DNA of 64,000 nt from an uncultured Chloroflexia bacterium (GCA_963797485.1 CAWCPF010000003.1:934552-998551), one strand, 5' to 3'. Counted from the stretch's first letter, positions 26,313 through 58,492 are shown. Notes: a model not told the origin generated them from the letters alone. A program made the numbers and translations.

Positions 26313-26315
26313 GCC

Positions 26316-28276: not shown

Positions 28277-28295
28277 GGGCTGGATTCCCTTATGC

Positions 28296-29244: not shown

Positions 29245-29366
29245 GCGGTCCATCCTGATTGCCTTTGATCAACCTCTACCGTGCCAAGTTCCACGTTCGA
29301 CGAGCCAGATAAGTCCGGGAGGGGGGCTGGGGACCAGCCCCCCTCGAAGTTCAGATTGAACGGAGC

Positions 29367-30707: not shown

Positions 30708-30860
30708 TGTATTCTCCTCCTGTTTTCACAGGACTGAGCGCTTTGCGCAGGGCGTCGCTCGGTTGGCACTTGCCCTGGCGCAGCTTGGCGGATCGGTACG
30801 ATGGACTGAATAGGGTTGGACCGCCGGTCTTTCACCTCCTCCCTGCTGATGGGCTGGGTC

Positions 30861-31823: not shown

Positions 31824-31837
31824 CGGAGGCTCCTTCC

Positions 31838-33123: not shown

Positions 33124-33124
33124 G

Positions 33125-34102: not shown

Positions 34103-34938
34103 GCCAGCTCCTTCCGGGCTTCCTCAGCCTGCACAGGGGTCAGGGCCCGCCCATGAAATGTGAAATCCTGCTCGACAAAACTGACGCCTTTGCCCTTGAC
34201 CGTGTGGGCGATCAAGATCTGGGGCTTGCCCGAGATGGTCTGAAGGGTGGTGAGCTTGGCTATGAGCTGTTCGGTTGAGTGCCCATCGCACTCATCGACG
34301 TGCCAGCCGAACGCCCGCCACTTGTCTGCCAGCGGCTCGAGCCCCATTTCGCGGCTGATGGGCCCGGTCTCCTGATAGCCGTTGTAGTCGAGGATAGCGG
34401 TCAGCCGGTCGCACTTGAAATGCGCCGCCGCCATGGCAGCCTCCCAAACCTGGCCGGCTTCGCACTCGCCGTCGCCAATCAGGACGTAAACGCGGTAGTC
34501 CTGTTGGTTGAGCCGCCCCGCCAGTACGTGACCAATCCCCAGGGAGAGACCCTGGCCGAGGGATCCCGAAGTGCACTCGACGCCCGGCATACATCCTTGA
34601 ATTGGATGGCCCTGCATGGGGCTGCCGATTTTGCGCAGCTCCCCCAGCATCTCGAGGCTGAAGTAGCCTGCGCGGGCGAGGATGGCGTACAGCAGAGGCG
34701 CGGCATGACCCTTGCTCATCAGGAACCGATCACGCTCGGGCCACCAGGGATCCTCGGGTCGATAGCGGAGCAAGCCCCCAAAGTACAGCGCCACCATGAT
34801 TTCGACGGCCGACCACGAGCTGGACGGATGACCGGAAGCGGCCCGAGTGGTGCTTTCCAGGATATCCAGCCGGATGGTATGGGCCAATTCATTGAGTTGT
34901 TTGAGATCAAGGGTTTTCGGATAATGCTCAGACATCAT
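34093..34938 (-). CDS. Transketolase, N-terminal (TPP-binding) subunit
   Basis: SGHP, SKGHA, GSLGQG, GDGECEAGQVWEA, TVKGKG. Confidence 0.94.
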   Translation of the reverse strand: MMSEHYPKTLDLKQLNELAHTIRLDILESTTRAASGHPSSSWSAVEIMVALYFGGLLRYRPEDPWWPERDRFLMSKGHAAPLLYAILARAGYFSLEMLGELRKIGSPMQGHPIQGCMPGVECTSGSLGQGLSLGIGHVLAGRLNQQDYRVYVLIGDGECEAGQVWEAAMAAAHFKCDRLTAILDYNGYQETGPISREMGLEPLADKWRAFGWHVDECDGHSTEQLIAKLTTLQTISGKPQILIAHTVKGKGVSFVEQDFTFHGRALTPVQAEEARKELAWN

Positions 34939-35893
34939 GACTCCCCAGAAAGGTTTGGACCTGTTCCAAAGTCGGCAGGGCCGGGATGACGCCCTGCCTT
35001 AACGCGGTCAGGGCGGCGACGGCGTTGGCGTAGCGCATATGGCCCGTCAGGCGCTCGGGGTCCAGCTCGGCGCGCCAATTCGATCCGGAGACTAATCGAC
35101 ACAGCAATCCCGCCATGAATGCATCCCCGCAGCCCGTGGCGTCAACGGTCTCGACCGGGTAAGCCGGAACCAGCCCGGCGCCTTGCGGGCTGAAGAACTG
35201 GCTCCCACCAGAGCCCCGCGTGAGCACCACCACGCTGGGGCCCAACTCAAAGAGCATGGCGGCGGTCGTCTCCGGCTTTTGCCCTCGGCCCAGTAGCTCC
35301 ATCTCGGTTTCATTGACCTTGACCAGGTCGGAGCGGGCGGCGAACTCGAGCGCCATGCTTCTAGCGGCGGCGGGCGACGGCCAAAAAGTCGGGCGGTAGT
35401 TCACGTCGTATGAAATCAGGCTGCCTGCTTGGCGGGCTATTTCGATGGCGCTGGAGGTGGCGCTGCGGCTCGGTTCGTCGGTCAGGCTGAGCGAACCGAA
35501 ATGGAATACCCGGGCGGAGTGGATCAATGATGAATCCAGCTCGGCGGGCTCAAGGCGAGTATCCGCGCCCGGGTTGCGATAAAAAACGCATTCATATGAG
35601 TTGGGGTCCGGCTGCGACAGCAACACCATGGTGGTTCGAGCATCGGGATCGAAACGCAGGCCCTGCACGTTGACGCCTTCATGCACAAGGATGGATTCGA
35701 GCCAGTGTCCATACGGATCGTCGCCGACCTTGCCTATGAACGCGCTCGAATAACCCAATCTGGAGGCGGCTACGGCCGCGTTGGCCATGGCCCCGCCCGG
35801 AGTCGGCTTCAGGGCGGTCACCTCGGTCAGAGGACGGCCGATCTCGACCGGAAACATGTCAACCAGCAGTTCACCCAGACAGATGAGGTCCAT
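34928..35893 (-). CDS. PfkB-family carbohydrate kinase
   Basis: GGAMANAA, GKVGDD, DVNYRP, DATGCGDAF. Confidence 0.94.
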   Translation of the reverse strand: MDLICLGELLVDMFPVEIGRPLTEVTALKPTPGGAMANAAVAASRLGYSSAFIGKVGDDPYGHWLESILVHEGVNVQGLRFDPDARTTMVLLSQPDPNSYECVFYRNPGADTRLEPAELDSSLIHSARVFHFGSLSLTDEPSRSATSSAIEIARQAGSLISYDVNYRPTFWPSPAAARSMALEFAARSDLVKVNETEMELLGRGQKPETTAAMLFELGPSVVVLTRGSGGSQFFSPQGAGLVPAYPVETVDATGCGDAFMAGLLCRLVSGSNWRAELDPERLTGHMRYANAVAALTALRQGVIPALPTLEQVQTFLGSHDV

Positions 35894-35899
35894 GCCAGC

Positions 35900-36632
35900 T
35901 CACTCGCGCACTTCCCCATACAAGGCGTACCGGTCCCCGCGGTAGTAAATGCGCAGGAACTCCGATGGGGCATTGGTTTGGGAATAGGAGACACGCTCGA
36001 CGAACAGCAGGGGCGACCGGCTTGGTATGCCCAGCATTTTGGCCTGCGGCCGGGACGAGATGACGGCCCGGATGGTTTGATGGGCGCGCACAAACCGCAG
36101 TCCATACCTTTGAGTGAGCACGGACTTGAGGGACGCCTTCTCGAGATCCACCTCTAGGAGCCCAGGGCAGAGTTCGTGGACCAGGTGGGAATTCCTCGAT
36201 GCTCATGGGTTCCCCATCCGCCAGCCTGAGGCGGTCAATGCGCGCCAGCGTGGTTCCGTCGGCAATCTGCAGGCGCTCGGCGATCTCATGCGGCGCCGGG
36301 ATGAGGTCGGCGAACAGGACCTGCGTGGTAGGCGTGAAGCCGCGCTGGGTCATGTCTTCGGTGAAGCTCAGGATTCGGCTCAAGGCGTGTTCGAGGGTAT
36401 GTTTGGACACAAAGGTGCCCCGGCCTTGCTGCCGGTAGATCAGGCCCTCGTTCACCAGCCGGTGCAGCACCTGCCGCACCACGATTCGACTGACTTTGTA
36501 TTCCGCGGTGAGCTCAGATTCGGGCGGAATCATGCCCCCCTCGACCCATTGGCGGCTGAGAATCTTGCCGCGCAATATGTCGTAAAGCTGTTGGTGAAGG
36601 GGCAGTCTGCTCAGGCGGTTGACGGCGTCCAT
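35900..36632 (-). CDS. GntR (HutC/UTRA) regulator, apparent frameshift near 36190
   Basis: MDAVNRLSRLPLHQQL, PPESEL, QGRGTFV; C-terminal YRGDRY in ORF 35900-36151; close paralog of 24285-25019. Confidence 0.85.
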
Positions 36633-36675
36633 GGGGCCCCAGTCAGATTGATTCCGAGACGAATGGCAAACACTC

Positions 36676-37800
36676 TTACCCGGACGGCAGATCGATCCAC
36701 CGGCCGGCGGCGGCGGACTGACCAACCGCATCCAGGACCTGCTGGCACTTCCAGCCATCGCGGAAATCCGGCATGACGGACGTGTGGCCGTCGATGGCGA
36801 CCAGCAAGTCGTAGATTTCGTGAATAAACGTGTGCTCCCAGCCGATGATGTGCCCCGGCGGCCACCAGGCGCTGAGATATGGATGTGAGTGCTCGGTGAC
36901 CATGATGGTATGGAAGCCCTGGACTTCGGGCGGATCTTCGGTGGAGAAGAACTCCAGCTCATTCATCCGCTCCAGGTTGAACACCAGGCCGCCCTTGCTC
37001 CCGAACAGTTCGAAGCGCAAGAAATTCTTGCGACCCGTCGCCAAACGCGTGGCCAAGAACGCTCCCTGGGCTCCGTTGACAAACCGCGCCAGAAAGGCTG
37101 TGGCGTCATCGGCGGTGACCTTTCCTTTTGAGCCGTCGGACTTGGTGCGCTCCTTGATGAACACCTCTTGGACACCATTCACGGCCTCAATGTCCCCGAC
37201 CAGATATCGGGCCAGGTCAACCGTGTGGGCGTTCATGTCTCCGTGGGCGCCCGAGCCGGCTTCGGCGATGTCGTTCCGCCAGACGTAAGGGAAGGCGGGA
37301 TCGAGGAGCCAATCCTGGTAGTACACGGCATTGAAGTGGTACACCGTGCCGATGCGTCCCTGATCGATGAGCTGCTTGGCGAGCACGATGGCGGGCACGC
37401 GGCGGTAGTTGAAAGCCACCATGTGGGTCACGCCGGCGGCTTCGGCGGCTTCATACATTTGGCGCGCCTCGTCGGCGTTCATGGCGATCGGTTTTTCGCA
37501 CAAGATGTGCTTGCCACGCTTGGCGGCGTCCAGGGCCATCGGGAGATGGGTGGAATTGGAGGTGCAGATGTCGACCAGATCAATGTCGTCCCGGGCGGTG
37601 AGCCGCTCCCACGAGGTCTCGGTCGACTGATAGCCGAACTGCCCGGCGAAGCGGGCCAGCTGGGCCTGGTCCCGGCCGCAGGCGGCTGTCAGCACGGGGC
37701 GCAGGGGGGAAGGAAAAAAATAGCCCACATCGATGTAGGCATTCGAATGCGCCCGCCCCATAAAACGCGTGCCGATCATCCCGACCCGGATGTCCGTCAT
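36676..37800 (-). CDS. Gfo/Idh/MocA oxidoreductase (levoglucosan-dehydrogenase-like subfamily)
   Basis: GMIGTRFMGRAHS, CEKP, AFNYRR, QDW, AGSGAHGD, WWPPGHIIGWEHTF. Confidence 0.92.
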   Translation of the reverse strand: MTDIRVGMIGTRFMGRAHSNAYIDVGYFFPSPLRPVLTAACGRDQAQLARFAGQFGYQSTETSWERLTARDDIDLVDICTSNSTHLPMALDAAKRGKHILCEKPIAMNADEARQMYEAAEAAGVTHMVAFNYRRVPAIVLAKQLIDQGRIGTVYHFNAVYYQDWLLDPAFPYVWRNDIAEAGSGAHGDMNAHTVDLARYLVGDIEAVNGVQEVFIKERTKSDGSKGKVTADDATAFLARFVNGAQGAFLATRLATGRKNFLRFELFGSKGGLVFNLERMNELEFFSTEDPPEVQGFHTIMVTEHSHPYLSAWWPPGHIIGWEHTFIHEIYDLLVAIDGHTSVMPDFRDGWKCQQVLDAVGQSAAAGRWIDLPSG

Positions 37801-37865
37801 AAGGCCTCCGCGAGTGAGCCAGGAAGCCGAGCGTTGTCGCGCCCCGGCAGGCCGCACATTGCAAG

Positions 37866-37895
37866 GACATTATAACGTTATAACGTTATAATGTC
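37866..37895. promoter_or_regulatory. Perfect 30-bp palindrome, putative GntR operator
   Basis: GACATTATAACGTTATAACGTTATAATGTC equals its own reverse complement; internal 8-bp period. Confidence 0.7.
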
Positions 37896-39226: not shown

Positions 39227-40531
39227 TCAGTTCCGGGCTGGTCGGTCCGGACCGGCCAGGGCCTCGGGCATCTCCAAAAGGCGATGCAGGTCGTCCAGAA
39301 ACCGGGCCGCCATGGCGCCGTCCAGCACACGATGATCCACCGACAAGCTGAGCGTGCACATAGTCCGGACGACGATCTCATCGCCGGTGTCGGACGCCGG
39401 GATCGCCCGGCGAGCGAGGCGGCCGACGGCCAGGATGGCGCTCTCGGGCGGATTGATGATGGCCGAGAAGCGGTCGATCCCGTACATCCCCAGGTTGGAG
39501 ATCGTAAAGGTGCCGCCCGATAAATCGTGCTGGCCCAGGCGACCCTGGCGCGCCCGCTCGGTGAGCTGGCGGAGCTCGCCGGCAATCGCCTGTAGGCTCT
39601 TGTCCTGCACCCTGTGGATGACCGGCACCACCAGTCCGTCCTGCAGGGCGACGGCCACGCCGACGTGAATCTCGGGATGCAATTGAATGACGTTTCCCTC
39701 GAGGCTGGCGTTGACCTCAGGGTGCCCGGCCAGCGCGGAGGCGACCGCTTTGACCAAGATGGCGGTCGCAGATATGCGCTCTGAACCCTCTTGGTTCAGC
39801 CTCTGCCGCAGCGCCTCCATGCGGGTGGCGTCTACGTCCACCTGAAGAGTGAAGTGCGGGGCGGTCCGGGCGCTGAAGGCCATTCGCTCAGCGATGGCCG
39901 CCCGCATGCCGACCAGCGGGATGGATTGGGCGCCTTCGGTCGCAAGACCTGGGTCCGTGGCAGACAAGACATCTTCGGCCTGGACGCGTCCCCGCGGCCC
40001 CGACCCGGAAAGGTCGCTCAAAGCGACATGGCGCTCGCCAGCCAGCCGGCGAGCAGCCGGCGTGGCCGCAATCCGGCTTGTGAGCGCCTGGCGGACGGCC
40101 TCAACGTCCCTGCGTGTGATCCGCCCGCCGGGTCCCGTTCCGGACAGCCGGTTCAGGTCGAGCCCGCGCTGGCCCGCTATTCTGGCTGCCAGGGGTGTGG
40201 CGCGTGCAGGCTTAGGTGAAGCCGGGTGCGGCCCGAGATGCGGCTCCGGAGCCGCCGGTTCTTTGGGCACCGGCGCGGACGGCGGCTCTTCGCCGGGTTG
40301 GACGACATAGGCCAGAATCTCGGTCGTGGCCAGCGTGTCCCCCTCGCGGGCCCGCAGGCCGGCCAGGATGCCGTCTTCAGGCGCCTCGACTTCCATGTTG
40401 ATCTTATCGGTGGTGACCTCGACCACCGGCTCACCCTTCTCCACTCGATCGCCCTCATGCTTAAGCCAGCGGGCGATTTGGGATTGCTCGTGGGTGAACC
40501 CGAATTTCGGGAGGATGATCTCGGTGGCCAC
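39227..40531 (-). CDS. Dihydrolipoamide acyltransferase (E2)
   Basis: EVTTDKINME lipoyl motif, two E3-binding repeats (ATPLAARIA, ATPAARRLA), TISNLG, DHRVLDG. Confidence 0.93.
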   Translation of the reverse strand: MATEIILPKFGFTHEQSQIARWLKHEGDRVEKGEPVVEVTTDKINMEVEAPEDGILAGLRAREGDTLATTEILAYVVQPGEEPPSAPVPKEPAAPEPHLGPHPASPKPARATPLAARIAGQRGLDLNRLSGTGPGGRITRRDVEAVRQALTSRIAATPAARRLAGERHVALSDLSGSGPRGRVQAEDVLSATDPGLATEGAQSIPLVGMRAAIAERMAFSARTAPHFTLQVDVDATRMEALRQRLNQEGSERISATAILVKAVASALAGHPEVNASLEGNVIQLHPEIHVGVAVALQDGLVVPVIHRVQDKSLQAIAGELRQLTERARQGRLGQHDLSGGTFTISNLGMYGIDRFSAIINPPESAILAVGRLARRAIPASDTGDEIVVRTMCTLSLSVDHRVLDGAMAARFLDDLHRLLEMPEALAGPDRPARN

Positions 40532-40619
40532 GTCAATATCGTCCTGAGTTTGCAAGTCGGCGGGAGGGGCAGGGCCGGGCCGGAGTCATCCGGCCCATCG
40601 GCTGCGAGACGATCACCGG

Positions 40620-41618
40620 CTAGACATCTCCCTGGACCATATGGCGCGCCACCCGGACCATGTCCTCGACCTGAGGCACGGCGTGCGCCTCCAACAGGCG
40701 GTTATACGGAATGGGGATGTCCAGACCTCCCAGCCTGCGAATAGGGGCGTCCAGGTAGTCGAACGCCTGGCTGGCGGCAAGCCGGGCGACCACCTCACCC
40801 CCAAAACCGCCGGTTTGAACGGCTTCATGAACCACGAGCGCGCGTCCCGTCTTGATCACCAATTCGATGATCGGTTGCTCGTCCAAAGGCTGGAGCGTGC
40901 GCGGATCGATGACCTCGAGCTCGATTCCCTCAGACGCCAGCTGTTGGGCGGCTTCGAGCGCGCGGGAGACCATCAGCGAGGTGGCGATGACGGTCAGGTC
41001 TCGCCCAGGGCGAACGATCTTGGTTTGAGAAAGCGGTACCAGATAGCGGCCTTCGGGGACCTCGGACTTCGTCTTATACAGAAGCTTGTGCTCGATGAAG
41101 ACGACCGGATTGTCGTCGTCGATAGCGGCCAGCAGCAGACCCTTGGCGTCGTAGGCATTGCTGGGCATGACGACTTTCAGGCCGGGGACATGGACGAACC
41201 AGTTCTCCAGGCTCTCGGAGTGCTGGGCGGCGGCGCCGGTGCCGGAGCCGCCAGGCATCCGCAGCACGAATGGGACGGTGGCCTTACCCCCAAACATGAA
41301 GCGCACCTTGGCGGCCTGGAGCACAAGTTGTTCCATCGATAGGGTGACAAAATCCATGAACTGGATCTCGCCGACCGGGCGCATGCCGGTCAGCGATGCC
41401 CCCAGGCAGGCGCCGGCGATGGCGGCTTCAGAGATGGGTGTGTCTCGAGGACGCGACGATCGCCAAACTCGTCGATCAGCCCGGCGGTCACACCGAAGGC
41501 GCCGCCGTACACCCCGATGTCTTCGCCGATGAGGAACACACGCGGGTCTTCGTTCATCGCCAAGCTGGAGCGCTTCGCGCAGGGCCTCGGCGTAGGTCAG
41601 TTCCCGGTCCTCAGGCAT
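40620..41618 (-). CDS. TPP-dependent dehydrogenase E1 beta (acetoin/2-oxoacid type); compensating frameshift pair near the N-terminus
   Basis: [39 protein letters not shown]. Confidence 0.88.
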
Positions 41619-42629
41619 AGACACCGTCCATGATGGTGGCCACGTCCGGGTCCGGGCTGGCTTCGGCGAATTCGACCGCGGCGGCGATAGCGGCCTCGGC
41701 GGCGAGTTTGTCATGTTCATTGTCGTCTGGGCCGATCAGTCCCTGTTTTTCCAGCAGGGCGGCAAAGCGCGGGATGGGATCCTTGGCCTGCCAGGCTTTG
41801 ACCTCATCGCGGGTCCGGTAGAGCTGGCGATCGCTCTTGGAGTGGCCTTTCCACCGGTAGGTGAGGCCTTCGATCAGGGTCGGCCCCTCGCCTTGGCGCG
41901 CCCGCTCGGCTGCAGTTCCGACCGCATCGAGAACCGCCAGCGGATCGTTGCCATCCACGGTTACGCCGGGGATGCCATAGGCGTCTGCGCGCCGGCTGAT
42001 GCGGTCGATGTTAAGGCTCGGCCGACGGGCATGGACATGGCGTACTGGTTGTTTTCGCAGTAGTAGACAATCGGCAGCTTCCAGATCGATGCCATGTTCA
42101 AGGCTTCATGGAAGGCGCCTTCGTTGGAGGCCCCATCGCCGAAGACGATCAGGCACACTTGGTCGGTTTCTCGGAGCTGGATGCTCAGACCGACCCCGAC
42201 CGAAATCGGCAGGCCGCCGGCCACAATGCCATTGGCGCCGAGGTTGTTGCTGGCCACATCGGCGATATGCATTGAACCGCCACGGCCGCGGCAGTAGCCG
42301 GTCTCTTTTCCCATGAACTCGGCCATCACGCGGTTGACGTCGGCGCCCCAGGCGAGCAGATGGCCGTGGCCGCGGTGGTGGTTGAGCAGATAGTCGTGCC
42401 CTCGACGCATGGCCCAGCAGGCGCCCACAGCGCTGCCCTCTTGGCCCACAGACAAGTGCATCGTTCCGTGGACCTTCCCTAAGCCGTACAGGGCCTCGGC
42501 CTTCTCTTCGAAGGTTCGAATCAGCCACATGGTCTCCAACATCTTGCGGGCATCGTCTGCCCCGAGATCTTCCAAAACCCTCAGGTCATTCGGGACCTGT
42601 TTAACCCTTTCGCCATTTTTGCTTGCCAT
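41611..42629 (-). CDS. TPP-dependent dehydrogenase E1 alpha (AcoA-like); apparent frameshift near 42000
   Basis: [41 protein letters not shown], then DGNDPLAV...TYRWKGHS. Confidence 0.88.
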
Positions 42630-42694
42630 CTCAAACTCCACACTCTTGGAAACGAACCATCCAAATCAAAATAGTCGGGTTGCCAAAGCGGGAA

Positions 42695-42982
42695 TCACTT
42701 CAACCCGGCATCTTGGCTAAAATTGCCTTCGACAAGATCTCTGAGAGCGTTCAAAGCCTGCTCGGCCTGTTCCCCCTCCGCCTGGACTGAGATGTCGTTG
42801 TCCTTCTGGACTCCGAGCAATAGCAGTTCGAGCGGGCTCTTCCCGTTAGAAGGCCCCTTGCCTGAGGTGAGATTTGTCACCCGGACATCGCACGGAAACT
42901 GTTTTGCAAGTTTGACAAACTGGGCCAAGGGTCGTGCATGAAGGCCAGCCTCGTGATGGATGGTGAGCTTGATTTCTGCCAT
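42695..42982 (-). CDS. ptsH: HPr family phosphocarrier protein (second copy)
   Basis: AGLHARP, NGKSPLELLLLG. Confidence 0.9.
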   Translation of the reverse strand: MAEIKLTIHHEAGLHARPLAQFVKLAKQFPCDVRVTNLTSGKGPSNGKSPLELLLLGVQKDNDISVQAEGEQAEQALNALRDLVEGNFSQDAGLK

Positions 42983-43108
42983 CGGCATCCCATTCACCTC
43001 TCCGGAAAATTCTCCCTGCGGCGATGGCCGCACGCTTCAAGGCTTATCAAGGAGGGCAGACCATGCCCGATCTTGAAGGTGCGCGCCCAACTCACGGCCA
43101 AGACCTCC

Positions 43109-44126
43109 TCAGTCCGCAGGCGCCGAAGCCAACCGGGCTTGGTTTGGATGGCTGAATTTGTCCGCTTCGGCACCATCCAAGTCCAAAATACGTTCGACGG
43201 CCAGACTATCGGTCACCAAGATGTCGATGTAGTGACCGCGGAGTGCGCCCAAAATGGCAGGTGCCTTTCCCGCGCCGCCTGCCACGCCGATCACAACGCA
43301 GTTCGGGCGGCTTATGGTCTCCAGGGATACACCGATGGCGCGCTGATTGATATCGATGTCGAGAATGCGACCGTCTTTGTCGTAATGGCAGGCGCAGATA
43401 TCCCCAATCGCGCCGGTCGCCTTGATGGCCATCATTTCTTTGGGCTGGGTATATCCAGCCCGAACCAGGCTTGAAATGTCGGGCTCGACGCTACCGATCC
43501 CCACCAGCGCCACGTCGGCCTGGCTGGCCAGCGCCAACGTCTCGCGAATGTTGCTTTCCTGCAGCAGAGCATGGCGGATGGAGGGGTCGTCAACGATCAG
43601 GGGGGCGTTGAGTGTGTAGTAGTCGGCGCCAAGGGTCTGGGCGAGACTGCGGGCGAGCTCCGGGCCATCAATGAGTGGGTCACCCCGCCCGGCCGCCCCG
43701 ATCATTTGAACGACGCGGACCTTGCTCCACTCACGTGCGCGCAAGGCGTTGGCTACCTCATAGATCGCCGTTCCCCATGAAATGCCGAGGATACTCTCTT
43801 CGGTCAGCACCTTGTCCAAACAGGCTGCACCTAAACGGCCCAACTGTCGCAGCGCGCGTTGATCGCTGGCCGTGCCCCTGGCGACCACATACGCCTCCCG
43901 AAGCCCGTAGCGGTCGCGGAACTTGCGTTCCAACTCGACGGCTCGGTTCAAAGGGAAGTGGATACGAATTTCAACGAATTCCTCGCTGGTGGGCTTCGAG
44001 GAGCAGCCGGGAAACCGCCGAACGCGAATAGCCAATCTCGCGTGCAATCTCAGCCTGGGTCATGTGCTGCTCGTAGTACATGTTCGCGATGTTGGCCAGG
44101 AGCTGCGCCCGCTCTTCGATTGCCAT
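43109..44126 (-). CDS. SorC/DeoR-family sugar-binding transcriptional regulator; apparent frameshift near 43975
   Basis: N-terminus ANMYYEQHMTQAEIAREIGYSRSAVSRLL read at 44126; GISWGT, ALVGIG, GAIGDIC, LVTD. Confidence 0.88.
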
Positions 44127-44220
44127 CGAGCCTCCTGCCGCCGGCGGCATGCAGAGGGGAGTTTCCCTTTAGATTTGTTATACACCCGCCTCCGCTCTTT
44201 GTGAACATTATTCCACCGAA

Positions 44221-44323
44221 GTCACAAATGTGCAATGACGACCTACTGCTCGTTCCTCCTATCCTTGCGCCAGGATGCCCCACAAAGGGTTGGTGGATAG
44301 ATGTCTGCCTTCACATATGTGAA
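44221..44323. promoter_or_regulatory. Two palindromic operators in the divergent SorC/PTS promoter region
   Basis: TTCACATATGTGAA (44310-44323, perfect) and GTCACAAATGTGCA (44221-44234). Confidence 0.55.
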
Positions 44324-44814
44324 ACTCTATTGCAAATGATACCTTTTGAGAAAATCGGGGTTATATATAGTGTAAGTGTTTCCGGTCGAGAAACTGGAAG
44401 GCGAAAAGGGCTCAGAGTGGAGCACTTGTCGCCCAAGGTGCAGATCCATCCGTGGCGCATTCCAAGTCTGAATCGGAGGCGGGCTAATGTGTATAGCCGC
44501 GCAGCCAAAACCAAGGCCATGAAACGGCCGGTGCCGCGTTTGTTATCGGCTCCTTCGCTCCCCTGTATTCGATTTTGGATTTGGGATATCAGAAGCATGC
44601 GTCGCGCCTCACTCGAATATGAACCGCCGTCCAGGAAGTTCTGGATGGAATGTATTCGAACCACGGGCTCATCGAAGGGAAGTCGGGACAGGTCGGGCCG
44701 AAAGACGGCCGACCTGTTTTGTTTTTTCCAACTCGGGCAAAGGGCTGCCGCGCTCCTAACCCGGGGACTCCACCCGAGCCGTGTTACCCATGTTCACGGG
44801 ATAGGTAGAACGCG

Positions 44815-45267
44815 ATGCAGTCTACGGCTACCGCCATCATATTTTGCTCGCGGGGGCATGGTTCCTTCAGTACTTCATGGCCTTCCTTCAGCTGCGGCGC
44901 TTCTACAAGCGGGTGGCTCAGCTCCATCGTCTGGGCAGTGTGTGGATCGGTGTGGAGGGATCCGCATGGAGGCGGCGGACGTATGCCATCCTGGTGGTGG
45001 ACAAGAAGGGGCGAGTGGCCAAAGTCGAACAGCTCTCCGGCTGGACGGTGTGGGCGAGCCCTAAACCCGTTCCCGGCCTGGAAGCCATTACGCTCGATAC
45101 GTTGATGAATGATTTCCATCGATTTGCCGGTCAATAAGAAGCTTCGCCTGGCGCTGCAGAATGCTGTGGGGCACATACGTGCCGCGGAACAGAGAAAGAA
45201 ATCGGAGTCCGTCCCCACAGATGAGACGACCTCAAACGAGGAGGTTCTGGGGGAGTCCGCCGGTTGA
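44815..45267 (+). CDS. gutM: GutM-like glucitol operon protein (apparent frameshifts)
   Basis: AWFLQYFMAFLQLRRFY..., LSGWTVWA; first gene of the srl-like operon. Confidence 0.7.
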
Positions 45268-45383
45268 GGTCATCGCCGCGGCCAAACAGCTGCCTTGGGA
45301 AGGAGGCGATATTCGAGAGAAATCCTATCTAAAGACAGGACTCGTAGTCGGAGCTTTTCTCATCTGTTAGGGAGGAACTACCT

Positions 45384-45944
45384 ATGGTCCAAGCAGCACT
45401 GTGGTTCATTGGCCTGTTCCAGGCTGGGGCCACCGTCTTCGTCGGCCTCGTCACGGGCATTATTCCGCTCGTGATCGTGCTGATGACGGCAGTCAACGCG
45501 CTGATCGCCCTCATTGGGCAGGAGCGCATTGAGGGCTTCGGCAAGTTCGCCGCCCGCCCGGGTTGGCTTTTCCTGCCCCTTCGATATCTGGCTCTGCCCG
45601 TTGTATCGGTGTTCTTCTTGCTGAACCCGATGGCCTACACGATGGGGCGGTTCTTGCCGGAGAAGTACAAGCCGGCGTTCTATGACGCGGCTGTCTCCTA
45701 TGTTCACCCTCCACTGGGGATCTTCCCGCATATCAACCCGGGCGAGCTCTTCGTCTGGTTGGGGATTGCCCAGGGCGTTCAGACCGGCTACGGCACCGAG
45801 GCGATGACGGCGCTGGCCGTGCGCTATCTGCTGGTCGGCCTGATCGTTATCCTCATCCGCGGCATCTTGACTGAGCGAATCACGGCCTTCATGTGGAACC
45901 CTGTGGACGCCGGCGAAGTCGAGCCCGCGGTTGAAATGGCCTAG
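45384..45944 (+). CDS. srlA: PTS glucitol/sorbitol-family EIIC
   Basis: WFIGLFQAG, TGIIP, NPMAYTMGRFLPEKYKP, FPHINPGELFVWLGIA. Confidence 0.93.
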   Translation: MVQAALWFIGLFQAGATVFVGLVTGIIPLVIVLMTAVNALIALIGQERIEGFGKFAARPGWLFLPLRYLALPVVSVFFLLNPMAYTMGRFLPEKYKPAFYDAAVSYVHPPLGIFPHINPGELFVWLGIAQGVQTGYGTEAMTALAVRYLLVGLIVILIRGILTERITAFMWNPVDAGEVEPAVEMA

Positions 45945-45954
45945 GAGGGATGAA

Positions 45955-46492
45955 ATGAATGCAATTGCTAAGCCCCTTGAAAGAATTGGCCGAGGCGTCG
46001 GGCAAGTCGTAGGCATCCTGTATCAGGCCGGCCGCGATTGGATCGACCAGGTCGTCGTCAACATCCTGCCCTTCATGGCCTTCATCGCCTTCGTCATCGG
46101 CATTATCAATGCCACTGGCGTCGGCAGCGCCCTTGCCAATTTGTTGAAGCCACTGGCGGGCAACGTAATCGGCATGGTTATCATGTCGCTGATTGTGGGC
46201 TTGCCCGTGCTGTCGCCCCTACTGGGCCCCGGCGCGGTCGTTGCCCAAATCATCGGAACCCTACTCGGTTCAACCTTTTTCGCCAACAAGATCCTGCCCC
46301 TGTCGATGGCCCTGCCGGCGCTCTTTGCCATCAACCCGCAGGTAGGGTGTGACTTCATCCCCGTCGGGTTGGCACTCGGCGAGGCGGAACCGTATACCGT
46401 CGAAATTGGTGTGCCGGCTGTGTTGTTCTTCGCAATTCGTCACCGGTCCGGTGGCGGTTGTCATCGCCTGGGCCTTGAGCTTCGGTCTGTAG
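45955..46492 (+). CDS. srlE: PTS glucitol-family EIIBC, C-terminal membrane domain as a stand-alone gene (frameshift near 46430)
   Basis: YQAGRD, NILPFMAF, LSPLLGPGAVVAQIIG, PALFAIN, CDFIPVGL; own AGGAGG RBS. Confidence 0.85.
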
Positions 46493-46537
46493 TCGTCTGA
46501 CGGCCCAGCAGGGTAGTCATGTGTGGGTTGAATTGAT

Positions 46538-46568
46538 CCTTGAGGGAGGGGCTGCCCCTCCCTCAAGG
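46538..46568. other. Intercistronic 14-bp stem-loop
   Basis: CCTTGAGGGAGGGG-CTG-CCCCTCCCTCAAGG. Confidence 0.6.
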
Positions 46569-46668
46569 TGGCATAATTGGGGAGATGCATCTTTTTTTCC
46601 CGACAGGTGCGGGGGCAAACGACCCGGTTCGTCCTTATCAGAACAAATTGAAAGGAGGTCAATTCCAG

Positions 46669-47049
46669 ATGGCAGAGAAGCAGTATCGCAAGGTCAAGGT
46701 TACTAAGGGACCCAAGGGGTGGGGTGGCCCGCTGGTGATCGAACCGAAACCCGGCAAGGACTTGATCTATTCGGTCACGGGAGGTGGAATTCACCCTTTG
46801 GCCCAGCACATCGCCGACCTGACCGGGGGAACCCCGTTCGATGGTTTCAAGTCGAAGGCGGCCTTCGAGGCCATCGCCTGCGCCGTGATTGACTGCGGCG
46901 GGACCGCCCGGGTGGGCGTGTACCCGATGAAGAAGGTGCCGACCATCGACATTTACCCAACCTCACCTTCGGGGCCGCTGTTCCGGTTCATCAAGGCCGA
47001 CATTTTTGTCTCGGGTGTCCGTCCGGAGGACGTCGAACTCATCGACTAG
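46669..47049 (+). CDS. srlE: PTS glucitol-family EIIB domain as a stand-alone gene
   Basis: KGPKGWGGPL, DGFK, VIDCGGTARVGVYP (phospho-Cys), SGPL, VSGV; AAAGGAGG RBS. Confidence 0.88.
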   Translation: MAEKQYRKVKVTKGPKGWGGPLVIEPKPGKDLIYSVTGGGIHPLAQHIADLTGGTPFDGFKSKAAFEAIACAVIDCGGTARVGVYPMKKVPTIDIYPTSPSGPLFRFIKADIFVSGVRPEDVELID

Positions 47050-47146
47050 CCGGGTGAACGGCGGCAAGCGCCGGTCCTGGCAAAGTTGGGGCGGTGCCTC
47101 CCCTTGAAGAGGGTGGATTTCGTGCCGCTCCTTGGAGCGAACTGCG

Positions 47147-47514
47147 GTGGTCAAATATTCAGCCCAAGTCACCCAGATTGGCCCGCTGGTGTCCGAGTTC
47201 ATCGAGCATGGGATTTCTGGTTCTCTTTGGCGCCGACGCGCCTGAGGAATTGGCGGAGTTCTCCGTGCTCCACGACGGCGAAACCCTGGTTGCACCGGTC
47301 GAGCCTGGGGATGAAGTCTCGTTAGGCAGTCACACTTTCGATGTTTTGGCGGTCGGCGATGTGGCCAACAGCAATTTGGGCAGCGCTAGGCCATCTCATT
47401 CTCAAATTCAATGGACAATCTACAGTCGAGATGCCGGGCGACGTATGCCTGGAGGCGAAGCCGCTGCCGCCGGTAGAGATCGGCATGCATCTAACCATCC
47501 AGAACGGCGCTTAG
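47147..47514 (+). CDS. srlB: PTS glucitol-family EIIA (two apparent frameshifts)
   Basis: Reconstructed VKYSAQVTQIG...LVLFGADAPEELAEFSVLH...AVGDVANSNL.SLGHLILKFNG...MPG. Confidence 0.8.
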
Positions 47515-47537
47515 AGACGCCAGGAGTCCAAACCAAC

Positions 47538-48852
47538 ATGTCGTTGAAAGAGCTTTTGTCTGAACATGAAAAGAAGACAGGATCACCGATCCGGGTCGGC
47601 CTGGTGGGGGCGGGGCAGATGGGGACGGGGCTCATCAGCCAGATCGAGAAAATGGTGGGCATGCGAGTGGTCGCCGTGGCGGACGTTTTGCCCGACCGTG
47701 CCAGGGCCGCCTACGTCGAGTCCGATGTGGATCCAATCCTCGTCGTACAAGAGGAGAGCGATCCGCAAGCTGCCGGGCGGCAGGTTCGGGACGGAAAGCG
47801 GGTCGCCAGTCATTCTTCCGAGCTGATCGCGCACATCCCCGACCTGGATGTGATCGTTGAATGTACCGGTATTCCCGAGGTCGGGGCGGTCGTGTGCAAG
47901 CATGCTATCTTGGCCCACAAGCACGTGGTCAACATGAACGTTGAAACGGACTGCACGGTCGGCTTTCGCCTGGCTGAGATGGCGCGTCAGGCTGGCGTCG
48001 TTTACACGCTGACTGCCGGCGATGAGCCCGGCACGATCAAAGAGATTTACGATTTCGCCGACGCGCTCGGCTTTGAGATCGTCACAATCGGCAAGGGGAA
48101 GAACAATCCGCTGGATCCCACCGCTACGCCGGAAACGGTTGCCGAAAAAGCCAAAGCTCAAAACATGAGCGCCAAGATGCTGGCCTCGTTCGTGGACGGC
48201 ACCAAGACCATGGTGGAGATGACGGCCGTCGGCAACGCCACAGGATTCCCCCCTGAAGTTAGGGGAGCCCACGGACCCACGGTCAAAGTCGACGAGCTGG
48301 CGAAAGTCTTCGTTCCGAAGGAAGATGGCGGCATCATGGAGGGGAAGGGCGCCGTGGATTACGCCCTAGGCTCGATCGCGCCAGGGGTGTTTGTGATCAT
48401 CACCACCGACCAGCCAAAGATCATCGCGGACCTCAAGTACCTGCACCTGAACGGTCACGGCCAGTATTGGGCCCTGTACCGTCCTTACCACCTGGCCAAT
48501 CTGGAAACGCCGATTGCCATTGCCAGGACGTGCCTTTACGAGGAAGCGACGATCAACACCCAGCGTCCACCGGTGGCTGAAACCCTGGCCATGGCCAAGC
48601 GGGATTTGAAAGCTGGAGAGAAGGTCGATGCCCTCGGCGGCTTCACCGTTTACGGTTGCATCGATCGGGCGGATGTGGCGAAGTCTGAAGGGATCGTGCC
48701 GCTGGGTATCTCGGTCGGGGCGACCCTCACCCGAGATGTAACGAAGGGTGAGCCGCTGCATTTCTCGGAGGTAGAACTGGACGAGAGTCTAAACCATCTT
48801 CAAACTGCGAATGGAGCAGGACGAGATGGTTGCCCCCGCGCAGCCGGCCTGA
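47538..48852 (+). CDS. NAD(P)-dependent oxidoreductase with SAF domain (COG4091 type), paralog of 31838-33123
   Basis: GLVGAGQMG, NVETDCTVG, GDEPG, GKGKNNP, FVDGTKTMVEM, YRPYHL, AKRDL; C-terminal frameshift near 48790. Confidence 0.88.
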
Positions 48853-48957
48853 CAAGTTGCAGGGGAAGCAGCCTGGCGGGGGAGCATGTTGGAGCCTGCC
48901 AGGCGATGATGGCGCAGAGCCGACCCACAAGGATCACAGTCCGTTCCGAGAGATCCG

Positions 48958-49602
48958 ATGAACGCCCTGAAAAGACTGGCGCGTCTTTCGACCGATATTG
49001 TCACGCTGGTCAATGGCCAACGGCACGTCGACGACAAGACCCGCCACACGCTCGTCCCCCCAGGAATTCGAAAGCCGCTGTTAGACGCCGCCCGTAAAGC
49101 ATCCGACCGCGGCCTTGTCGTCGCCCAGCTGTCGGAGATCAGCGCACGACTTCCCGGTGGAAGAATGGTCATCAATGGCGAAGGGACTTGGCTGGCTGAT
49201 CTTTCCGACAAGGATTTGGCCGTCGTGACCGGCGAGGGGAGCCGAAGCATGCTAGACCTGGGTCCCAGCCGGCACACGGCATGGCACCGGTGGATTTATG
49301 AGGGCACACAGGCCGTCGCCACGTTGCTATGCCAGCCTGCGGCCGCGATCCGCCTGGCTCAGGCCGGCGCCTCTCCCCGAGCCACGGCCTTGCCCGACGC
49401 TGCCAGCCTTATGGGCAAGATCGCGGTCATAGAAGCGGATGCGGTTCAAATCAAGGGCGCCCTGGCCGGCCGCCATGCCTTGCTCATCCGCGAGCATGGG
49501 CTGCTGGTGTGGGGTAAGTCACCGATGTCCGTGGTCAAAATGGCCGAGACCGCCACGGCTTGGTGTGTGGCCTCGCTCAGGGACGAGGACCCAAGGGAAT
49601 GA
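48958..49602 (+). CDS. Class II aldolase/adducin-like protein (degenerate metal site)
   Basis: EISARLPGGRMVI, PSRHTAWHRWIY, ALLIREHGLLVWG. Confidence 0.7.
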   Translation: MNALKRLARLSTDIVTLVNGQRHVDDKTRHTLVPPGIRKPLLDAARKASDRGLVVAQLSEISARLPGGRMVINGEGTWLADLSDKDLAVVTGEGSRSMLDLGPSRHTAWHRWIYEGTQAVATLLCQPAAAIRLAQAGASPRATALPDAASLMGKIAVIEADAVQIKGALAGRHALLIREHGLLVWGKSPMSVVKMAETATAWCVASLRDEDPRE

Positions 49603-49716
49603 AGGGGAACTCCTAACGGATAAGTAGGCGGTCGTGCCGGCCCGCGGCCGCCATCGGATGGGCGCAGGAGAGGCCGGCAGGGCACTCGACCGAACCATCG
49701 AGAACAGGAGGTCGCT

Positions 49717-51436
49717 ACGCGTCGCTTCAAAGGACTGCCCGTTTTCTCCGGGCCTGGCCATCGGGCCCGCCTGGATATACCATGCGGTCAAGGTCTCCGT
49801 GGTTGCGCATAAAATCACCGACCCCGAAAGCGAATGGATGCGGCTTCAATCGGCCGTCAATCTAGCCCGTGACCAACTTCAGGGGATCGAGGCCAAAGCC
49901 CGCAAGACGATTGGCGCCGACGAAGCTGATATCTTTGCTGCCCACCAGGCATTCTTGGATGACATTGAACTCATGGCCAAGGTCCGGACATCGATCCTCG
50001 ACGAACATACCAATGCCGAGGCTGCGATCAAGGCCGCTTATGACGAGTACTCGGACACGTTGGCCAACATGGACGACCCGTACTTCAAGGCGCGGGCACA
50101 GGACCTGACGGATGTGTCCGAACGTGTATTGCGGTGTCTGAAGGGGGAAGCCGACGAAAACTCGGTCTTCTTGACTCAACCGTCGGTCATCTGTGGCCAT
50201 GGACCTGACGCCGTCCGATACGGTGGGCTTCGATCGCGACAAGATCTTGGGGATCTGCATCGCCAAAGGAGGTCCTACCTCGCACACGGCGATCCTGGCC
50301 CGCAGCATTGGGGTCCCGGCCGTGGTGGGGGCTTCGTTCGAAATCGACGAACTTGAGAACGAAGTACTCACAGTCTTGGACGGGGGAGAGGGCTCGATCA
50401 TTTTTGGGCCGACCTCAACGAATTGGAACTGGCCAAGGAAAAGAAAGCGGCATGGGAGTCCGCCCGGGCTGGGCAGCTCGCCGAAGCCGACAAGCCGGCC
50501 ACGACGGTGGATGGCCGCAAGGTTGAGGTTGCCGCGAACATCGGCGGGGTCAGTGATGCGATCAAGGCCCTGGAGATGGGGGCTGAAGAAGTCGGTCTGT
50601 TCCGCACCGAGTTCCTCTACTTGGATCGAACTGAACTCCTCAACATCGAAGATCAAGTTTCGATTTACCACAATGTTTTCGATCTCATGGCGGGAAAACC
50701 TGTGGTGGTTCGAACCCTGGACATCGGGGGCGACAAAAACGTTCTTACTTGGGCCTTCGCCGAGGAGCAAATCCGTCTTGGGTTGGCGGGGGATGCTGGC
50801 ATGGTCCGGGAGCGGGCCGATATGATTCGAGAACCAGTTTCGGGCCCTTCTGTTGGCCGGAACCCAATGCGACCTGAGGATCATGCTTCCGATGGTCTCC
50901 GGTGTCGGGGAAGTCGCTCGGTCCCGTGAGATCTTTGATCAGGTGCGCCAGGAGCTTGAGTCGGAGGGCCGTCTCGGCGGTTCCAAGGTCGAATTTGGCA
51001 TCATGATCGAGGTCCCTTCCGCCGCTCTCTTGGCCGAGCATCTGGCCGAGCTTGTGGATTTCTTCAGCATCGGGACCAACAATTTAACTCAATACACGCT
51101 CGCGAGTGGACCGTACCAACGAACGCGTCGCCGTGCTCGCCAGCCCTTTCAACCCCGCGGTTTTGCGGCTAATCTCCATCACGATCGAGGCCGGCCACCG
51201 CCACGGGAAATGGGTTGGCATGTGTGGGGAGCTAGCTGGAGACCCAAAGGCGGTCCCGCTCCTGCTAGGGTTAGGGCTGGACGAATTCAGCATGGCGCCA
51301 AGCAGCATTCCAGAGGTCAAGCAGGCCATTCGAAGCTGGTCAATGGACGCGGTGCGAGAAGTGGCGCAGCGAGCCTTGGGCATGAGCGGATCGTCGGAAG
51401 TGATCCAGTATCTCGAAGAAAATTACGCCCGGCTAA
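49717..51436 (+). CDS. ptsI: PEP-protein phosphotransferase, PTS Enzyme I (multiple apparent frameshifts)
   Basis: [24 protein letters not shown] (phospho-His), [38 protein letters not shown] across five ORF pieces; AGGAGG RBS before an ACG codon. Confidence 0.85.
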
Positions 51437-51709: not shown

Positions 51710-51714
51710 GAAGG

Positions 51715-51789
51715 TCGGGGCGGGCGGATTTGAACCTCCGACCCCCTGCACCCCATGCAGGTGCGCTAGCCGGGCTGCGCCACGCCCCG
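51715..51789 (-). tRNA. tRNA-Pro(GGG)
   Basis: CGGGGCG acceptor stem, CCTGC-ATGGGGT-GCAGG anticodon arm, GGTTCAAATCC; TTGAGG-17-TATAAT promoter at 51829-51801. Confidence 0.93.
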
Positions 51790-51825: not shown

Positions 51826-53198
51826 TCAAGCCAATTCGTCTCCCGCGCCAAAGCGTTGCACGATACGGGCTGTGTGCCGCACCCCGCGCACGAACTCGCT
51901 CACCAGGATGTGCTCATTCGGCGCGTGTATTCGCGCGCCGGGATAGCCAATTCCGGCCGTGGCGATGGGCACGTGCAAATTGGCGATGAAGGTGTGGACG
52001 GGACCCGAGCCGCCGACCAGAGGCTCAATCAATTGCGGCTGGCCATACACCTCGCGGGCCGTCTCCACCACCATTTGAAGAAAGGGGTTATCGGGGGGCG
52101 TGCGACCCGGCGGCTCCCCCGCCAGCCGGTGCACCTGGACGTCCCCAAAGCCTTGCGCCTGCAAATGGGTCTCGAGCTGCTCGAAGACCTCGTCCGGGTC
52201 TTGATCCGGGACCAGCCGGAAGTCCACTTTGGCCCTGGCTTCTGCCGGCAAGACCGTCTTGGTCCCCACGCCCTGATACCCGGAGGTCAGGCCGCAGATG
52301 GTGCAGGTGGGGGTGAAGACTTCCTCCCGGTGCAGGTCGAGCCCGCCTTCCAAACCCTTGATGAAGTGTTCGACTCCGTAGGTCTGCTTGTATTCATGCG
52401 AGACCTCCGGGAGCAGCTCCAAGAGTTCAAGATCCCGCCGCGCTCGGGGGCACCACCCGATCGTAGAAACCGGGAATGCGAATGCGCTCGTCGGGGCCCT
52501 TCAAGCTGGCAAGTGCCCACGTCAGGCGCCAGGCGGAGTTGGGGAAGATACCACCGCCCAGACCGGAATGGGCATCGAGGTCGGCCGTGTGGCTGGTCAA
52601 CTCCACATACAGGATGCCGCGCAGCCCGGCAGACTGAACCGGCCGGCCGTCGTGATCGACGCCGCCGAATTCCCAGATGCACGCATCCGCCGCCAGCCGA
52701 CCGGCATGCGTCTCGATGAACTCAGGCAGGTTCGGGCTGCCGATCTCTTCTTCGCCCTCGACGATGAACTTGACGCGGCAGGGCAGCTCGGGTTGGATCG
52801 CCAGGATGGCGTCCAGGGCGGCCAGGCGGCACACCAGGTGGCCCTTGTCGTCGCTGACTCCCCGGGCGTAAAGTTTGCCGTCCCGCAGGCTGGGTTCAAA
52901 CGGGGGTGTCTCCCAAAGCTCCAATGGCTCGGGGGGTTGGACGTCATAGTGGTTGTAAAACAGCAATGTCCGTTCGGATGTGCCGGCCCGCTCAGCTACC
53001 ACCACCGGCTGCCCGAGGCTGGGAAGGATCTCAACCTGGAAGCCGCGCGCCCTCGAGCATCTTGCCGACGAGCTCGGCACACGCGGACATGCCCAAATTC
53101 TGGGCGGCGATGCTCGGCTGTGCGCACAGGCGCTTGAGGCTTTCGAGCTGAGCCGGGAGCTGGGAATCGATGGCGGCGTCCAGAGGGGCGTTATCCAT
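51826..53198 (-). CDS. M20 family metallopeptidase/deacylase (apparent frameshifts)
   Basis: YNHYDVQP, ARGVSDDKG, EGEEEIGS, DAHSG, IHAPNE; N-terminus MDNAPLDAAID at 53198. Confidence 0.88.
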
Positions 53199-58410: not shown

Positions 58411-58492
58411 AGGCTCCATTCTACAATCAACCGCCAGTCGTCGGCGGCAGCGCCTGTGGTAGGATGCGTGCACAAATTATCTGGAGGCCGGG

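Follow-up and report, generated by a model that had tools for sequence, protein, structure and literature searches.

A Gut-family phosphotransferase locus with a DXR-II-type reductoisomerase and an E1/E2 complex in an uncultured Chloroflexia bacterium: a candidate module for methylerythritol catabolism

Which polyol is taken up, and how is it broken down, when the glucitol (Gut) family of the phosphotransferase system (PTS) is encoded beside a lipoate-dependent enzyme complex? The question is raised by positions 39227-51436 of a 64,000-nucleotide stretch of DNA (the window, below) from an uncultured Chloroflexia bacterium (GCA_963797485.1 CAWCPF010000003.1:934552-998551), whose genome assembly consists of four contigs and is 81% complete. 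In Escherichia coli and Salmonella the sorbitol operon has the layout srlAEBD-gutM-srlR-gutQ (PTS Gut family, TC 4.A.4). The Chloroflexia locus resembles it in encoding homologues of SrlA, SrlE and SrlB together with GutM, but differs in that SrlD is missing, the two halves of SrlE are separate genes whose order is swapped, Enzyme I (EI, PtsI), HPr and a SorC-type regulator are supplied locally, and an NAD(P)-dependent oxidoreductase and the E1 and E2 components of a thiamine diphosphate (TPP)-dependent complex are encoded as well (Table 1). An earlier reading of the window, made from the sequence alone, had taken this to be a non-canonical, SrlD-lacking operon with its own EI and HPr. Its inventory of both divergent arms is borne out by Pfam, PtsI and HPr included, and neither a kinase nor a short-chain dehydrogenase/reductase (SDR) of the SrlD type was found among the open reading frames (ORFs) and Pfam matches within 39227-51436; the nearest SDR gene (adh_short, 57670-58476) lies amid folate genes.

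That sequence-only reading further supposed that a non-sorbitol polyol is phosphorylated on import and oxidised to a ketose phosphate, which the E1/E2 complex then cleaves. This scheme is kept here and made specific, in that the locus is proposed to serve the catabolism of 2-C-methyl-D-erythritol (ME) under the control of SorC and GutM. The PTS of the Gut family (SrlA, SrlB and the split SrlE), with phosphoryl groups supplied by the EI and HPr of the locus, would import ME and phosphorylate it to methylerythritol phosphate (MEP); the oxidoreductase, an enzyme of the DXR-II/DRL type working opposite to the biosynthetic direction, would convert MEP and NAD(P)+ into DXP (1-deoxy-D-xylulose 5-phosphate); an E1 resembling AcoAB or pyruvate dehydrogenase (PDH) would cleave the C2-C3 bond of DXP on TPP, releasing glyceraldehyde 3-phosphate; and E2 would carry the acetyl group on lipoate to coenzyme A (CoA), with E3 recruited from elsewhere in the genome (C3:431925-433316). 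The net products would be acetyl-CoA and glyceraldehyde 3-phosphate. We give this route, taken as a whole, about an even chance of being correct. The identities of the genes, the conservation of the set, the DXR-II clade features of the oxidoreductase and the lack of the MEP pathway in the hosts are matters of observation, set out below.

The chemistry of the proposed cleavage has close parallels. DXP is a methyl-ketone acyloin, the phosphorylated analogue of acetoin, and the E1 step is put forward because DXP contains the motif CH3-CO-CHOH-R that is cleaved by the E1 of acetoin dehydrogenase. Cleavage between C2 and C3 amounts, moreover, to the second half-reaction of DXP synthase (DXS) run backwards, DXS being an enzyme of established chemistry that acts on the same bond through the same TPP intermediate (hydroxyethyl-TPP plus glyceraldehyde 3-phosphate). 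The proposed complex would differ from DXS in running in the opposite direction, in oxidising the hydroxyethyl group onto lipoate rather than deriving it from pyruvate, and in its protein architecture. As for uptake, the sorbitol PTS reportedly transports ME into Salmonella, to judge from the title of a 2004 study by Testa et al. Point mutants of aceE, which encodes the E1 of PDH, are described as making DXP in vivo (PMC3424233), and ME is described as a polyol of plants that is also released from bacterial methylerythritol cyclodiphosphate, MEcDP (PMC11192765).

The identity of the oxidoreductase is central to the argument. The COG4091-type enzyme noticed earlier is indeed present, but instead of an anonymous polyol-phosphate dehydrogenase it is, to judge by sequence, a reductoisomerase of the DXR-II/DRL clade. 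It aligns over its full length with DRL/DXR-II of Brucella (PDB 3UPY, 3UPL; E 1.6e-94) and has the complete domain set: the PF03447 NAD-binding N-terminus, PF21135 (DRL_cat, 215.9 bits) and the PF08666 SAF C-terminus. As a signature we used 21 positions named by Carretero-Paulet et al. 2013 (PMC3847144) as DXR-II-specific (variable in DLO1/DLO2), as substrate or fosmidomycin anchors, or as dimer contacts. The window protein and the enzyme of Brucella abortus are identical at 19 of them, differing at positions 346 and 413. Nine signature positions are invariant in all of the 84 operon-type orthologues compared, K191, K193, T229, F291 and R320 among them, the first three being anchors of the substrate analogue fosmidomycin. 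As described in that paper (PMC3847144), true DXR-II is set apart from two uncharacterised sister families and has members in Listeria and Sinorhizobium fredii NGR234, which we find to lie within modules of the present kind, and conversion of DXP into MEP is the one activity documented for the clade; the dehydrogenation step proposed above is the reverse of that activity. Membership of the clade therefore makes DXP the likeliest ketose phosphate, ME the likeliest polyol, and acetyl-CoA a likelier acyl product than the glycolyl-CoA originally suggested.

Could the enzyme not simply be biosynthetic, as DXR-II of Brucella has been described? Marker genes of the isoprenoid pathways were sought in six genomes, the incomplete one containing the window and five others that bear the operon. 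DXR-I and IspG were found in none of the six and IspH in none of the five searched for it, and HMG-CoA reductase was found in all six; nor does the genome of the window contain a true DXS, the best match to PF13292 (35.7 bits) falling on a transketolase/E1. Because MEP-pathway genes are absent and HMG-CoA reductase is present, a biosynthetic role is dismissed: DXR-II is not biosynthetic in the tested hosts, for which the reverse, catabolic role is proposed. Related puzzles are already on record. The account in PMC3847144 includes a Chloroflexus DXR-II that complements a dxr mutant though the organism has only the mevalonate pathway, which goes unexplained where it is described, and a Finegoldia with DXR-II and neither isoprenoid pathway; a 2026 review (PMC13001223), where it treats the distribution of Dxr-II, sees no pattern in it.

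Homologues of the oxidoreductase number in the thousands, the nearest being 91% identical and most coming from metagenome-assembled genomes of Anaerolineae. When a single genome from each species was scanned, 321 relatives came to light, from which the best 80 loci were retained; 38 of these are flanked on either side by 9 kb or more, and in them neighbours were counted by tblastn with intact operon proteins. All four PTS genes (those for SrlA, both halves of SrlE, and SrlB) stand beside the DRL gene in 36 of the 38, as do GutM (36) and SorC (36). The three genes for E1 alpha, E1 beta and E2 are present in 27, and PTS and E1/E2 genes together in 26; HPr is found in 27 loci, PtsI in 22 and an accessory aldolase-like gene in 21. 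The complete set of PTS, E1/E2, PtsI, HPr and SorC is seen in 20, and one further locus (L068) has DRL, E1 and E2 with an ATP-binding cassette (ABC) importer and no PTS. The commonest layout is a single co-directional operon. The combination that had been read from a single genome, and whose conservation had been put forward as a check, thus recurs widely.

The association extends to other phyla. Searching a plasmid collection with tblastn gave 93 records. On a plasmid of Rhizobium sp. the genes abut in the order GutM-IIC-IIB-IIA-EI-SorC-DRL-E1a-E1b-E2. In S. fredii pNGR234b, SorC-DRL-E1a-E1b-E2-E3 are transcribed divergently from genes for a kinase of the PfkB type and an ABC importer for sugars; in Aminobacter pMET1, DRL-E1a-E1b-E2 adjoin a regulator of the RpiR type and an ABC system that is PotD-like; and a Priestia plasmid carries GutM/SrlA followed by E1a-E1b-E2-E3-SorC-MFS-SorC-DRL-FGGY kinase, where MFS denotes a major facilitator superfamily transporter. 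Listeria monocytogenes has SorC-DRL-GutM-IIC-IIB-IIA, adjoining an internalin of the lmo0549 family. Importers of no fewer than three kinds are thus found in the company of the DRL-E1-E2 triad. The wiring together of oxidoreductase and E1/E2, first remarked on in the window, is therefore seen as genetic coupling across phyla, in the 38-locus survey and on plasmids alike, and that this is a conserved catabolic module in which DRL and E1/E2 are functionally coupled is very probable. Two variants lacking a PTS (L068, 4723-9869; L100, 14626-18692) have an ABC importer of the PotD/SBP_bac_6-8 type and no kinase gene, a hint that the substrate may be taken up already phosphorylated; AfuA provides a precedent for the import of sugar phosphates.

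A role at the level of cofactor supply has also to be considered, in which hosts without DXS import ME and convert it into DXP for thiamine and pyridoxal synthesis, the E1/E2 complex being incidental. The genome of the window does lack a real DXS, as noted above, and in Rhizobium sp. B230/85 (plasmid locus L099, 15780-19215) thiC, a thiO-like gene, thiS and thiG are located downstream of DRL-E1-E2, about 2 kb away. Since ThiG consumes DXP this is suggestive, but it may be coincidence. For flux on the scale of a cofactor, a lipoate complex and a full PTS for which even EI and HPr are supplied locally would be heavy machinery, and the plasmid modules of Rhizobium, Sinorhizobium and Priestia adjoin sugar importers and kinases; salvage of this kind we regard as very unlikely indeed.

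Whether the E1/E2 complex is dedicated to the module or a housekeeping enzyme is the next question. All of its parts are recognisable, E1 alpha by PF00676, E1 beta by PF02779 and PF02780, and E2 by lipoyl, E3-binding and PF00198 domains, so that it resembles acetoin dehydrogenase (the AcoA/AcoB/AcoC(/AcoL) system) and PDH in its TPP-dependent, heterotetramer-type E1 alpha/beta and lipoyl E2, and acetoin dehydrogenase also in the proposed reaction, in which an alpha-hydroxy ketone yields an acetyl unit and an aldehyde. It differs from both in its proposed substrate, a phosphorylated 1-deoxy-ketose, in its linkage to SorC and sugar importers, and in the lack of an E3 (lipoamide dehydrogenase) gene in the locus; an E3 gene adjoins the module in Priestia, pNGR234b, L104 and L118, and the distant E3 candidate given above is 62% identical to an operon-adjacent E3. 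When the intact L004 orthologues were scored against NCBIfam, E1 alpha and E2 fell below the PDH equivalog cut-offs (372.5 versus 393.85 and 383.3 versus 445, respectively) and E1 beta passed only a subfamily model. The genome has four other E1 sets, the E1 beta proteins of which are 38-48% identical to the operon type. In a tree of 98 E1 beta sequences (quick IQ-TREE, midpoint root) these four paralogues, on long branches, fall outside a 93-row clade (SH-aLRT 93) that unites the DRL-linked copies of Chloroflexota with those of Rhizobium, Aminobacter, Sinorhizobium and Priestia.

Further evidence comes from the neighbours of 45 E1 beta loci (at least 66% identity) in a sample of 201 genomes of the class. 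A DRL homologue is adjacent in nine; in five of the nine it is accompanied by Gut PTS genes, and in three it is a DRL of 40-45% identity, two of these standing beside AP_endonuc_2 and one of those two also beside a split transketolase and PfkB. Genes for a PTS of the galactitol (Gat) family (EIIC-GAT, IIB, EIIA_2) flank E1 beta in 14 loci, 13 of them without DRL; SorC is a neighbour in 26 and PtsI in 12, and none of DRL, Gut or Gat is found in 23, many of which are on short contigs. Because of these neighbourhoods, with DRL, Gut or Gat PTS, and SorC, the E1/E2 complex is best described as a SorC-regulated partner of sugar importers and not as housekeeping PDH. Anaerolineae loci without DRL (L103-L105, L108, L115, L118, L129, L130, L132, L136, L138, L143, L145) combine E1/E2 of the same orthogroup with SorC and a PTS of the galactitol/ascorbate family; PtsI is often present too, and no further catabolic enzyme is encoded in between. 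L103, for example, has Gat-PTS, SorC, HPr and PtsI by tblastn, and in L003/L112 both types of PTS are present. Such variants fit direct delivery of a phospho-ketose, which could be DXP formed from 1-deoxy-D-xylulose or else a different ketose phosphate; the latter option keeps the glycolyl-CoA version of the pathway alive.

Several observations weigh against the ME route. The substrate, the direction of the oxidoreductase step and the specificity of E1 are all inferred. The signature discriminates weakly, since the comparison contained no DLO1/DLO2 sequences and a broken DRL paralogue in the window, in a different gene context, retains most of the signature residues; His250, for its part, is His in 42 of the 84 orthologues and Tyr in 35. 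Ten of the 38 full-flank loci have PTS and DRL with no E1/E2 within 9-10 kb, although E1 beta at 62-72% identity occurs elsewhere in four of five genomes examined from this class, and in L. salivarius DRL with a Gut PTS is followed by fsa and tkt in place of E1/E2. Names given to E1/E2 by NCBIfam and by the source databases are mixed (PDH, acetoin:DCPIP oxidoreductase, generic TPP-dependent E1) and do not discriminate. The idea that operon-type E1 beta is confined to DRL-bearing genomes was ruled out: the group occurs in 91 of the 201 class genomes (E<=1e-115) and DRL of at least 57% identity in only eight, and the E1 beta group must therefore also work without DRL. Finally, one locus (L119) with an ABC importer, Zn-dependent alcohol dehydrogenase (Zn-ADH), FGGY kinase, SorC and E1/E2 resembles an ordinary route from polyol to ketose to ketose phosphate, and E1 could there take another ketose phosphate.

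Some of these facts suit a more generic form of the pathway, in which a non-methylated polyol is oxidised by DRL acting as a plain polyol-phosphate dehydrogenase, and E1/E2 cleaves the resulting 2-ketose phosphate into glycolyl-CoA and an aldose phosphate. The same genomic coupling would be expected, L119 fits a ketose phosphate such as pentulose 5-phosphate, and half of the orthologues lack His250. Yet the only activity that PMC3847144 documents for the clade is with DXP, the fosmidomycin-anchoring residues never vary, and common ketose phosphates reach central metabolism without the help of a lipoate complex, so that we hold this version to be unlikely, while leaving it a real share of the probability. 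Other facts suit an ordinary sorbitol operon in which DRL has replaced SrlD (sorbitol 6-phosphate to fructose 6-phosphate) and E1/E2 is PDH or acetoin dehydrogenase present for other reasons, for instance oxidising pyruvate formed in transport that depends on phosphoenolpyruvate (PEP). The PTS proteins reach or approach the NCBIfam glucitol models, the E1/E2 genes are missing from beside DRL in Listeria as well as in the ten loci just mentioned, fsa and tkt are the partners in L. salivarius, and the names assigned to E1 alpha by JGI are mostly 'pyruvate dehydrogenase E1'. It is difficult to reconcile with this that DRL, E1 alpha, E1 beta and E2 remain neighbours even in loci devoid of a PTS (L068, Aminobacter, pNGR234b), that E1 beta forms an orthogroup apart from the four other E1 sets, and that E1 alpha scores below the PDH cut-off; a sorbitol operon of this sort is decidedly unlikely.

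The ME route may itself be one branch of something larger. It is tentatively suggested that E1/E2 is a DXP dehydrogenase (acetyl-transferring) and the hub of a range of SorC-controlled modules, to which ME would be fed by a Gut-PTS, ABC or MFS-kinase importer with DXR-II, and 1-deoxy-D-xylulose by a Gat-PTS or ABC plus FGGY kinase without DXR-II. DXR-II would then have arisen, and would persist, mainly as a catabolic enzyme, its use by some bacteria as an alternative DXR being secondary. We consider this wider scheme possible, though less likely than not.

Table 1. Features of the locus in the window, with positions counted from the first nucleotide of the window.
Feature	Position	Strand	Evidence and remarks
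E2 dihydrolipoamide acyltransferase	39227..40555	-	Pfam lipoyl, E3_binding, 2-oxoacid_dh 269 bits; intact
E1 beta	40620..41720	-	Pfam Transket_pyr and Transketolase_C; frame shifts near 41446, 41564; 67% identity to L004 E1 beta
E1 alpha (TPP-binding)	41611..42641	-	Pfam E1_dh in two pieces (profile 2-179, 193-299); shift near 42014
HPr phosphocarrier	42695..43033	-	PTS-HPr 82.6 bits; intact
SorC/DeoR-type sugar-binding regulator	43109..44150	-	Sugar-bind 232 bits; helix-turn-helix at 43971-44150 in other frame, shift near 43976
GutM-like activator	about 44844..45267	+	one extra base at 45113/45114
SrlA, EIIC1 of Gut PTS (PF03608)	45384..45944	+	EII-GUT 232.6 bits, profile 2-165/167; intact
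SrlE membrane half (EIIC2)	45931..46500	+	EIIBC-GUT_C; separate gene ahead of EIIB half; shift near 46429
SrlE soluble EIIB half	46540..47049	+	EIIBC-GUT_N 1-118; intact; likely start further in, about 46669
SrlB, EIIA-Gut (PF03829)	about 47094..47535	+	PTSIIA_gutA 18-77/113; shifts near 47216, 47379
DXR-II/DRL-type NAD(P) reductoisomerase with SAF domain	47538..48852	+	DRL_cat 215.9 bits; one-nucleotide shift near 48792, last ~18 residues affected
Class II aldolase-fold protein, without zinc ligands	48958..49602	+	Aldolase_II 71.9 bits
PtsI (Enzyme I)	about 49693..51436	+	PEP-utilisers_N, PEP-utilizers, PEP-utilizers_C pieces; at least 4 reading frames; seven shifts, near 50192, 50420, 50740, 50776, 50796, 50828, 51105
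tRNA-Pro(GGG)	51713..51789	-	downstream edge of locus

Whether the locus still works in this genome depends on the meaning of its broken reading frames. A purpose-written, frameshift-aware alignment of protein to DNA, with intact orthologues from three loci (L004, L012, L010) as references, gave 16 one-base frame shifts that were reproduced with all three and that affect eight of the 13 genes: seven in PtsI, two each in E1 beta and SrlB, and one each in E1 alpha, SorC, GutM, the membrane half of SrlE, and DRL (positions in Table 1). E2 shows no shift with two of the references, the third placing one in its divergent N-terminus only, and the aldolase-like ORF is open but too divergent for the integrity of its frame to be judged. 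No in-frame stop or nonsense codon was found in the genes of the locus by alignment to the three references; a candidate stop in E1 alpha at 41961-41963 was dropped when the alignment gave instead a deletion of one nucleotide near 42014. Read evidence came from a single public run containing pieces of the locus (a soil metagenome; 5% of sampled words, with depth in 14 of 30 bins). Four 151-nucleotide reads are 99-100% identical to the window, and the two that cross predicted shift sites, out of the 16, both lack one base exactly at the site, at 45113 (in a run of T) and at 47382 (in a run of G), the latter read showing no other difference from the window.

The shifts could mean that the cluster is decaying and no longer functional in this genome. 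Sixteen reproducible shifts within 12.2 kb would be consistent with that, the more so as Pfam matches over the full length are the rule for the remaining genes of the window (of 51 coding-like ORFs outside the locus, 45 have matches, mostly full length, such as a 998-residue molybdenum hydroxylase and a 785-residue HypF). None of the 16 lesions is a nonsense substitution, however, both read-covered shifts are missing from reads at least 99% identical to the window, the identity of the proteins to their orthologues is undiminished within frames, and other patches of the genome, C3:1,074,000-1,131,000 for example, have far worse coverage by long ORFs. Decay is accordingly judged unlikely. Because there are no nonsense codons, two sites are absent from reads and the pattern is patchy, indel errors in the consensus are considerably likelier than pseudogene decay. 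Three further genes in the window are split, encoding the DRL paralogue, a GntR regulator and an M20 peptidase; the last (51829-53197, minus strand) occupies two frames (Pfam profile 1-104 and 112-205) and is another probable indel. Elsewhere in the genome, long coding-like ORFs cover only 0-25% of C3:1,074,000-1,131,000, C3:1,431,000-1,446,000, C2:633,000-639,000 and C4:96,000-102,000, against a median of 72%; these stretches may be error-rich patches of assembly or non-coding or repeat regions.

Other features of the locus can be stated briefly. The L004 orthologue of SrlA scores 225.9 bits, above the 150-bit cut-off of the NCBIfam model PTSGlctlSorbSrlA. Instead of the single SrlE polypeptide (EIIB plus EIIC2) there are two genes in swapped order, whose orthologues align to SrlE positions 158-329 (membrane half) and 1-121 (EIIB half) in NCBIfam; both halves are kept in 36 of the 38 full-flank loci. 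The partial profile coverage of SrlB is due to its frame shifts, its orthologues being full length (e.g. L070, 3-113/113). The class II aldolase had been called degenerate, and rightly so: in all 28 aligned orthologues a conserved LLCQP replaces the HxH zinc ligands, whose position we take to be that in FucA, and there is no third His. A repeat search of the intergenic region at 44100-44900 yielded no convincing operator, the only matches being short and in two copies.

The window also contains other clusters. A second sugar cluster (25215-37869) encodes a pair of MalK-type ATPases with two permeases and a binding protein, an AP_endonuc_2 TIM-barrel protein, a transketolase that is split (33128-34998), a PfkB kinase, a GntR/UTRA regulator whose gene is broken, a Gfo/Idh/MocA oxidoreductase and the frame-shifted DRL paralogue (about 31823-33186), whose tblastn pieces show 37-44% identity to the DRL of the operon. 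Presumably resembling the transketolase route for apiose/apulose, the cluster may have a different branched or deoxy sugar as its substrate; at L125, in another genome, this gene set is accompanied by E1/E2 as well. At 1178-6208 there is a mannose-family PTS (EIIA, IIB, IIC, IID) with Zn-ADH and a DeoC/LacD aldolase, and at 6745-16395 a molybdenum hydroxylase (FAD subunit and the fused 998-residue Fe-S/MoCo subunit) is followed by hypE, hypD, hypC, hypF and hypB, each of these genes being intact according to Pfam. Immediately upstream of the window (C3:932495-934156) there is another ptsI, itself intact and with 48% identity to the operon type, so that the genome has two Enzyme I genes.

A full-text literature search, which left subscription journals mostly outside, found no paper that connects DXR-II with either a PTS or an E1/E2 complex, nor any on the catabolism of methylerythritol. 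If the proposal is correct, the locus would encode the first route for the catabolism of methylerythritol or MEP, and oxidative cleavage of DXP to acetyl-CoA and glyceraldehyde 3-phosphate would be a new reaction for the 2-oxoacid/acetoin dehydrogenase superfamily. Strains of Rhizobium, Sinorhizobium and Priestia that are in culture and have the module on a plasmid allow the hypothesis to be tested directly. A mainly catabolic DXR-II would explain both the scattered distribution of the enzyme and its presence in bacteria without the MEP pathway, and the proposal, if correct, would also answer a question dating from 2010-2013, namely why DXR-II should be scattered, redundant with DXR-I, and present in species that lack that pathway.

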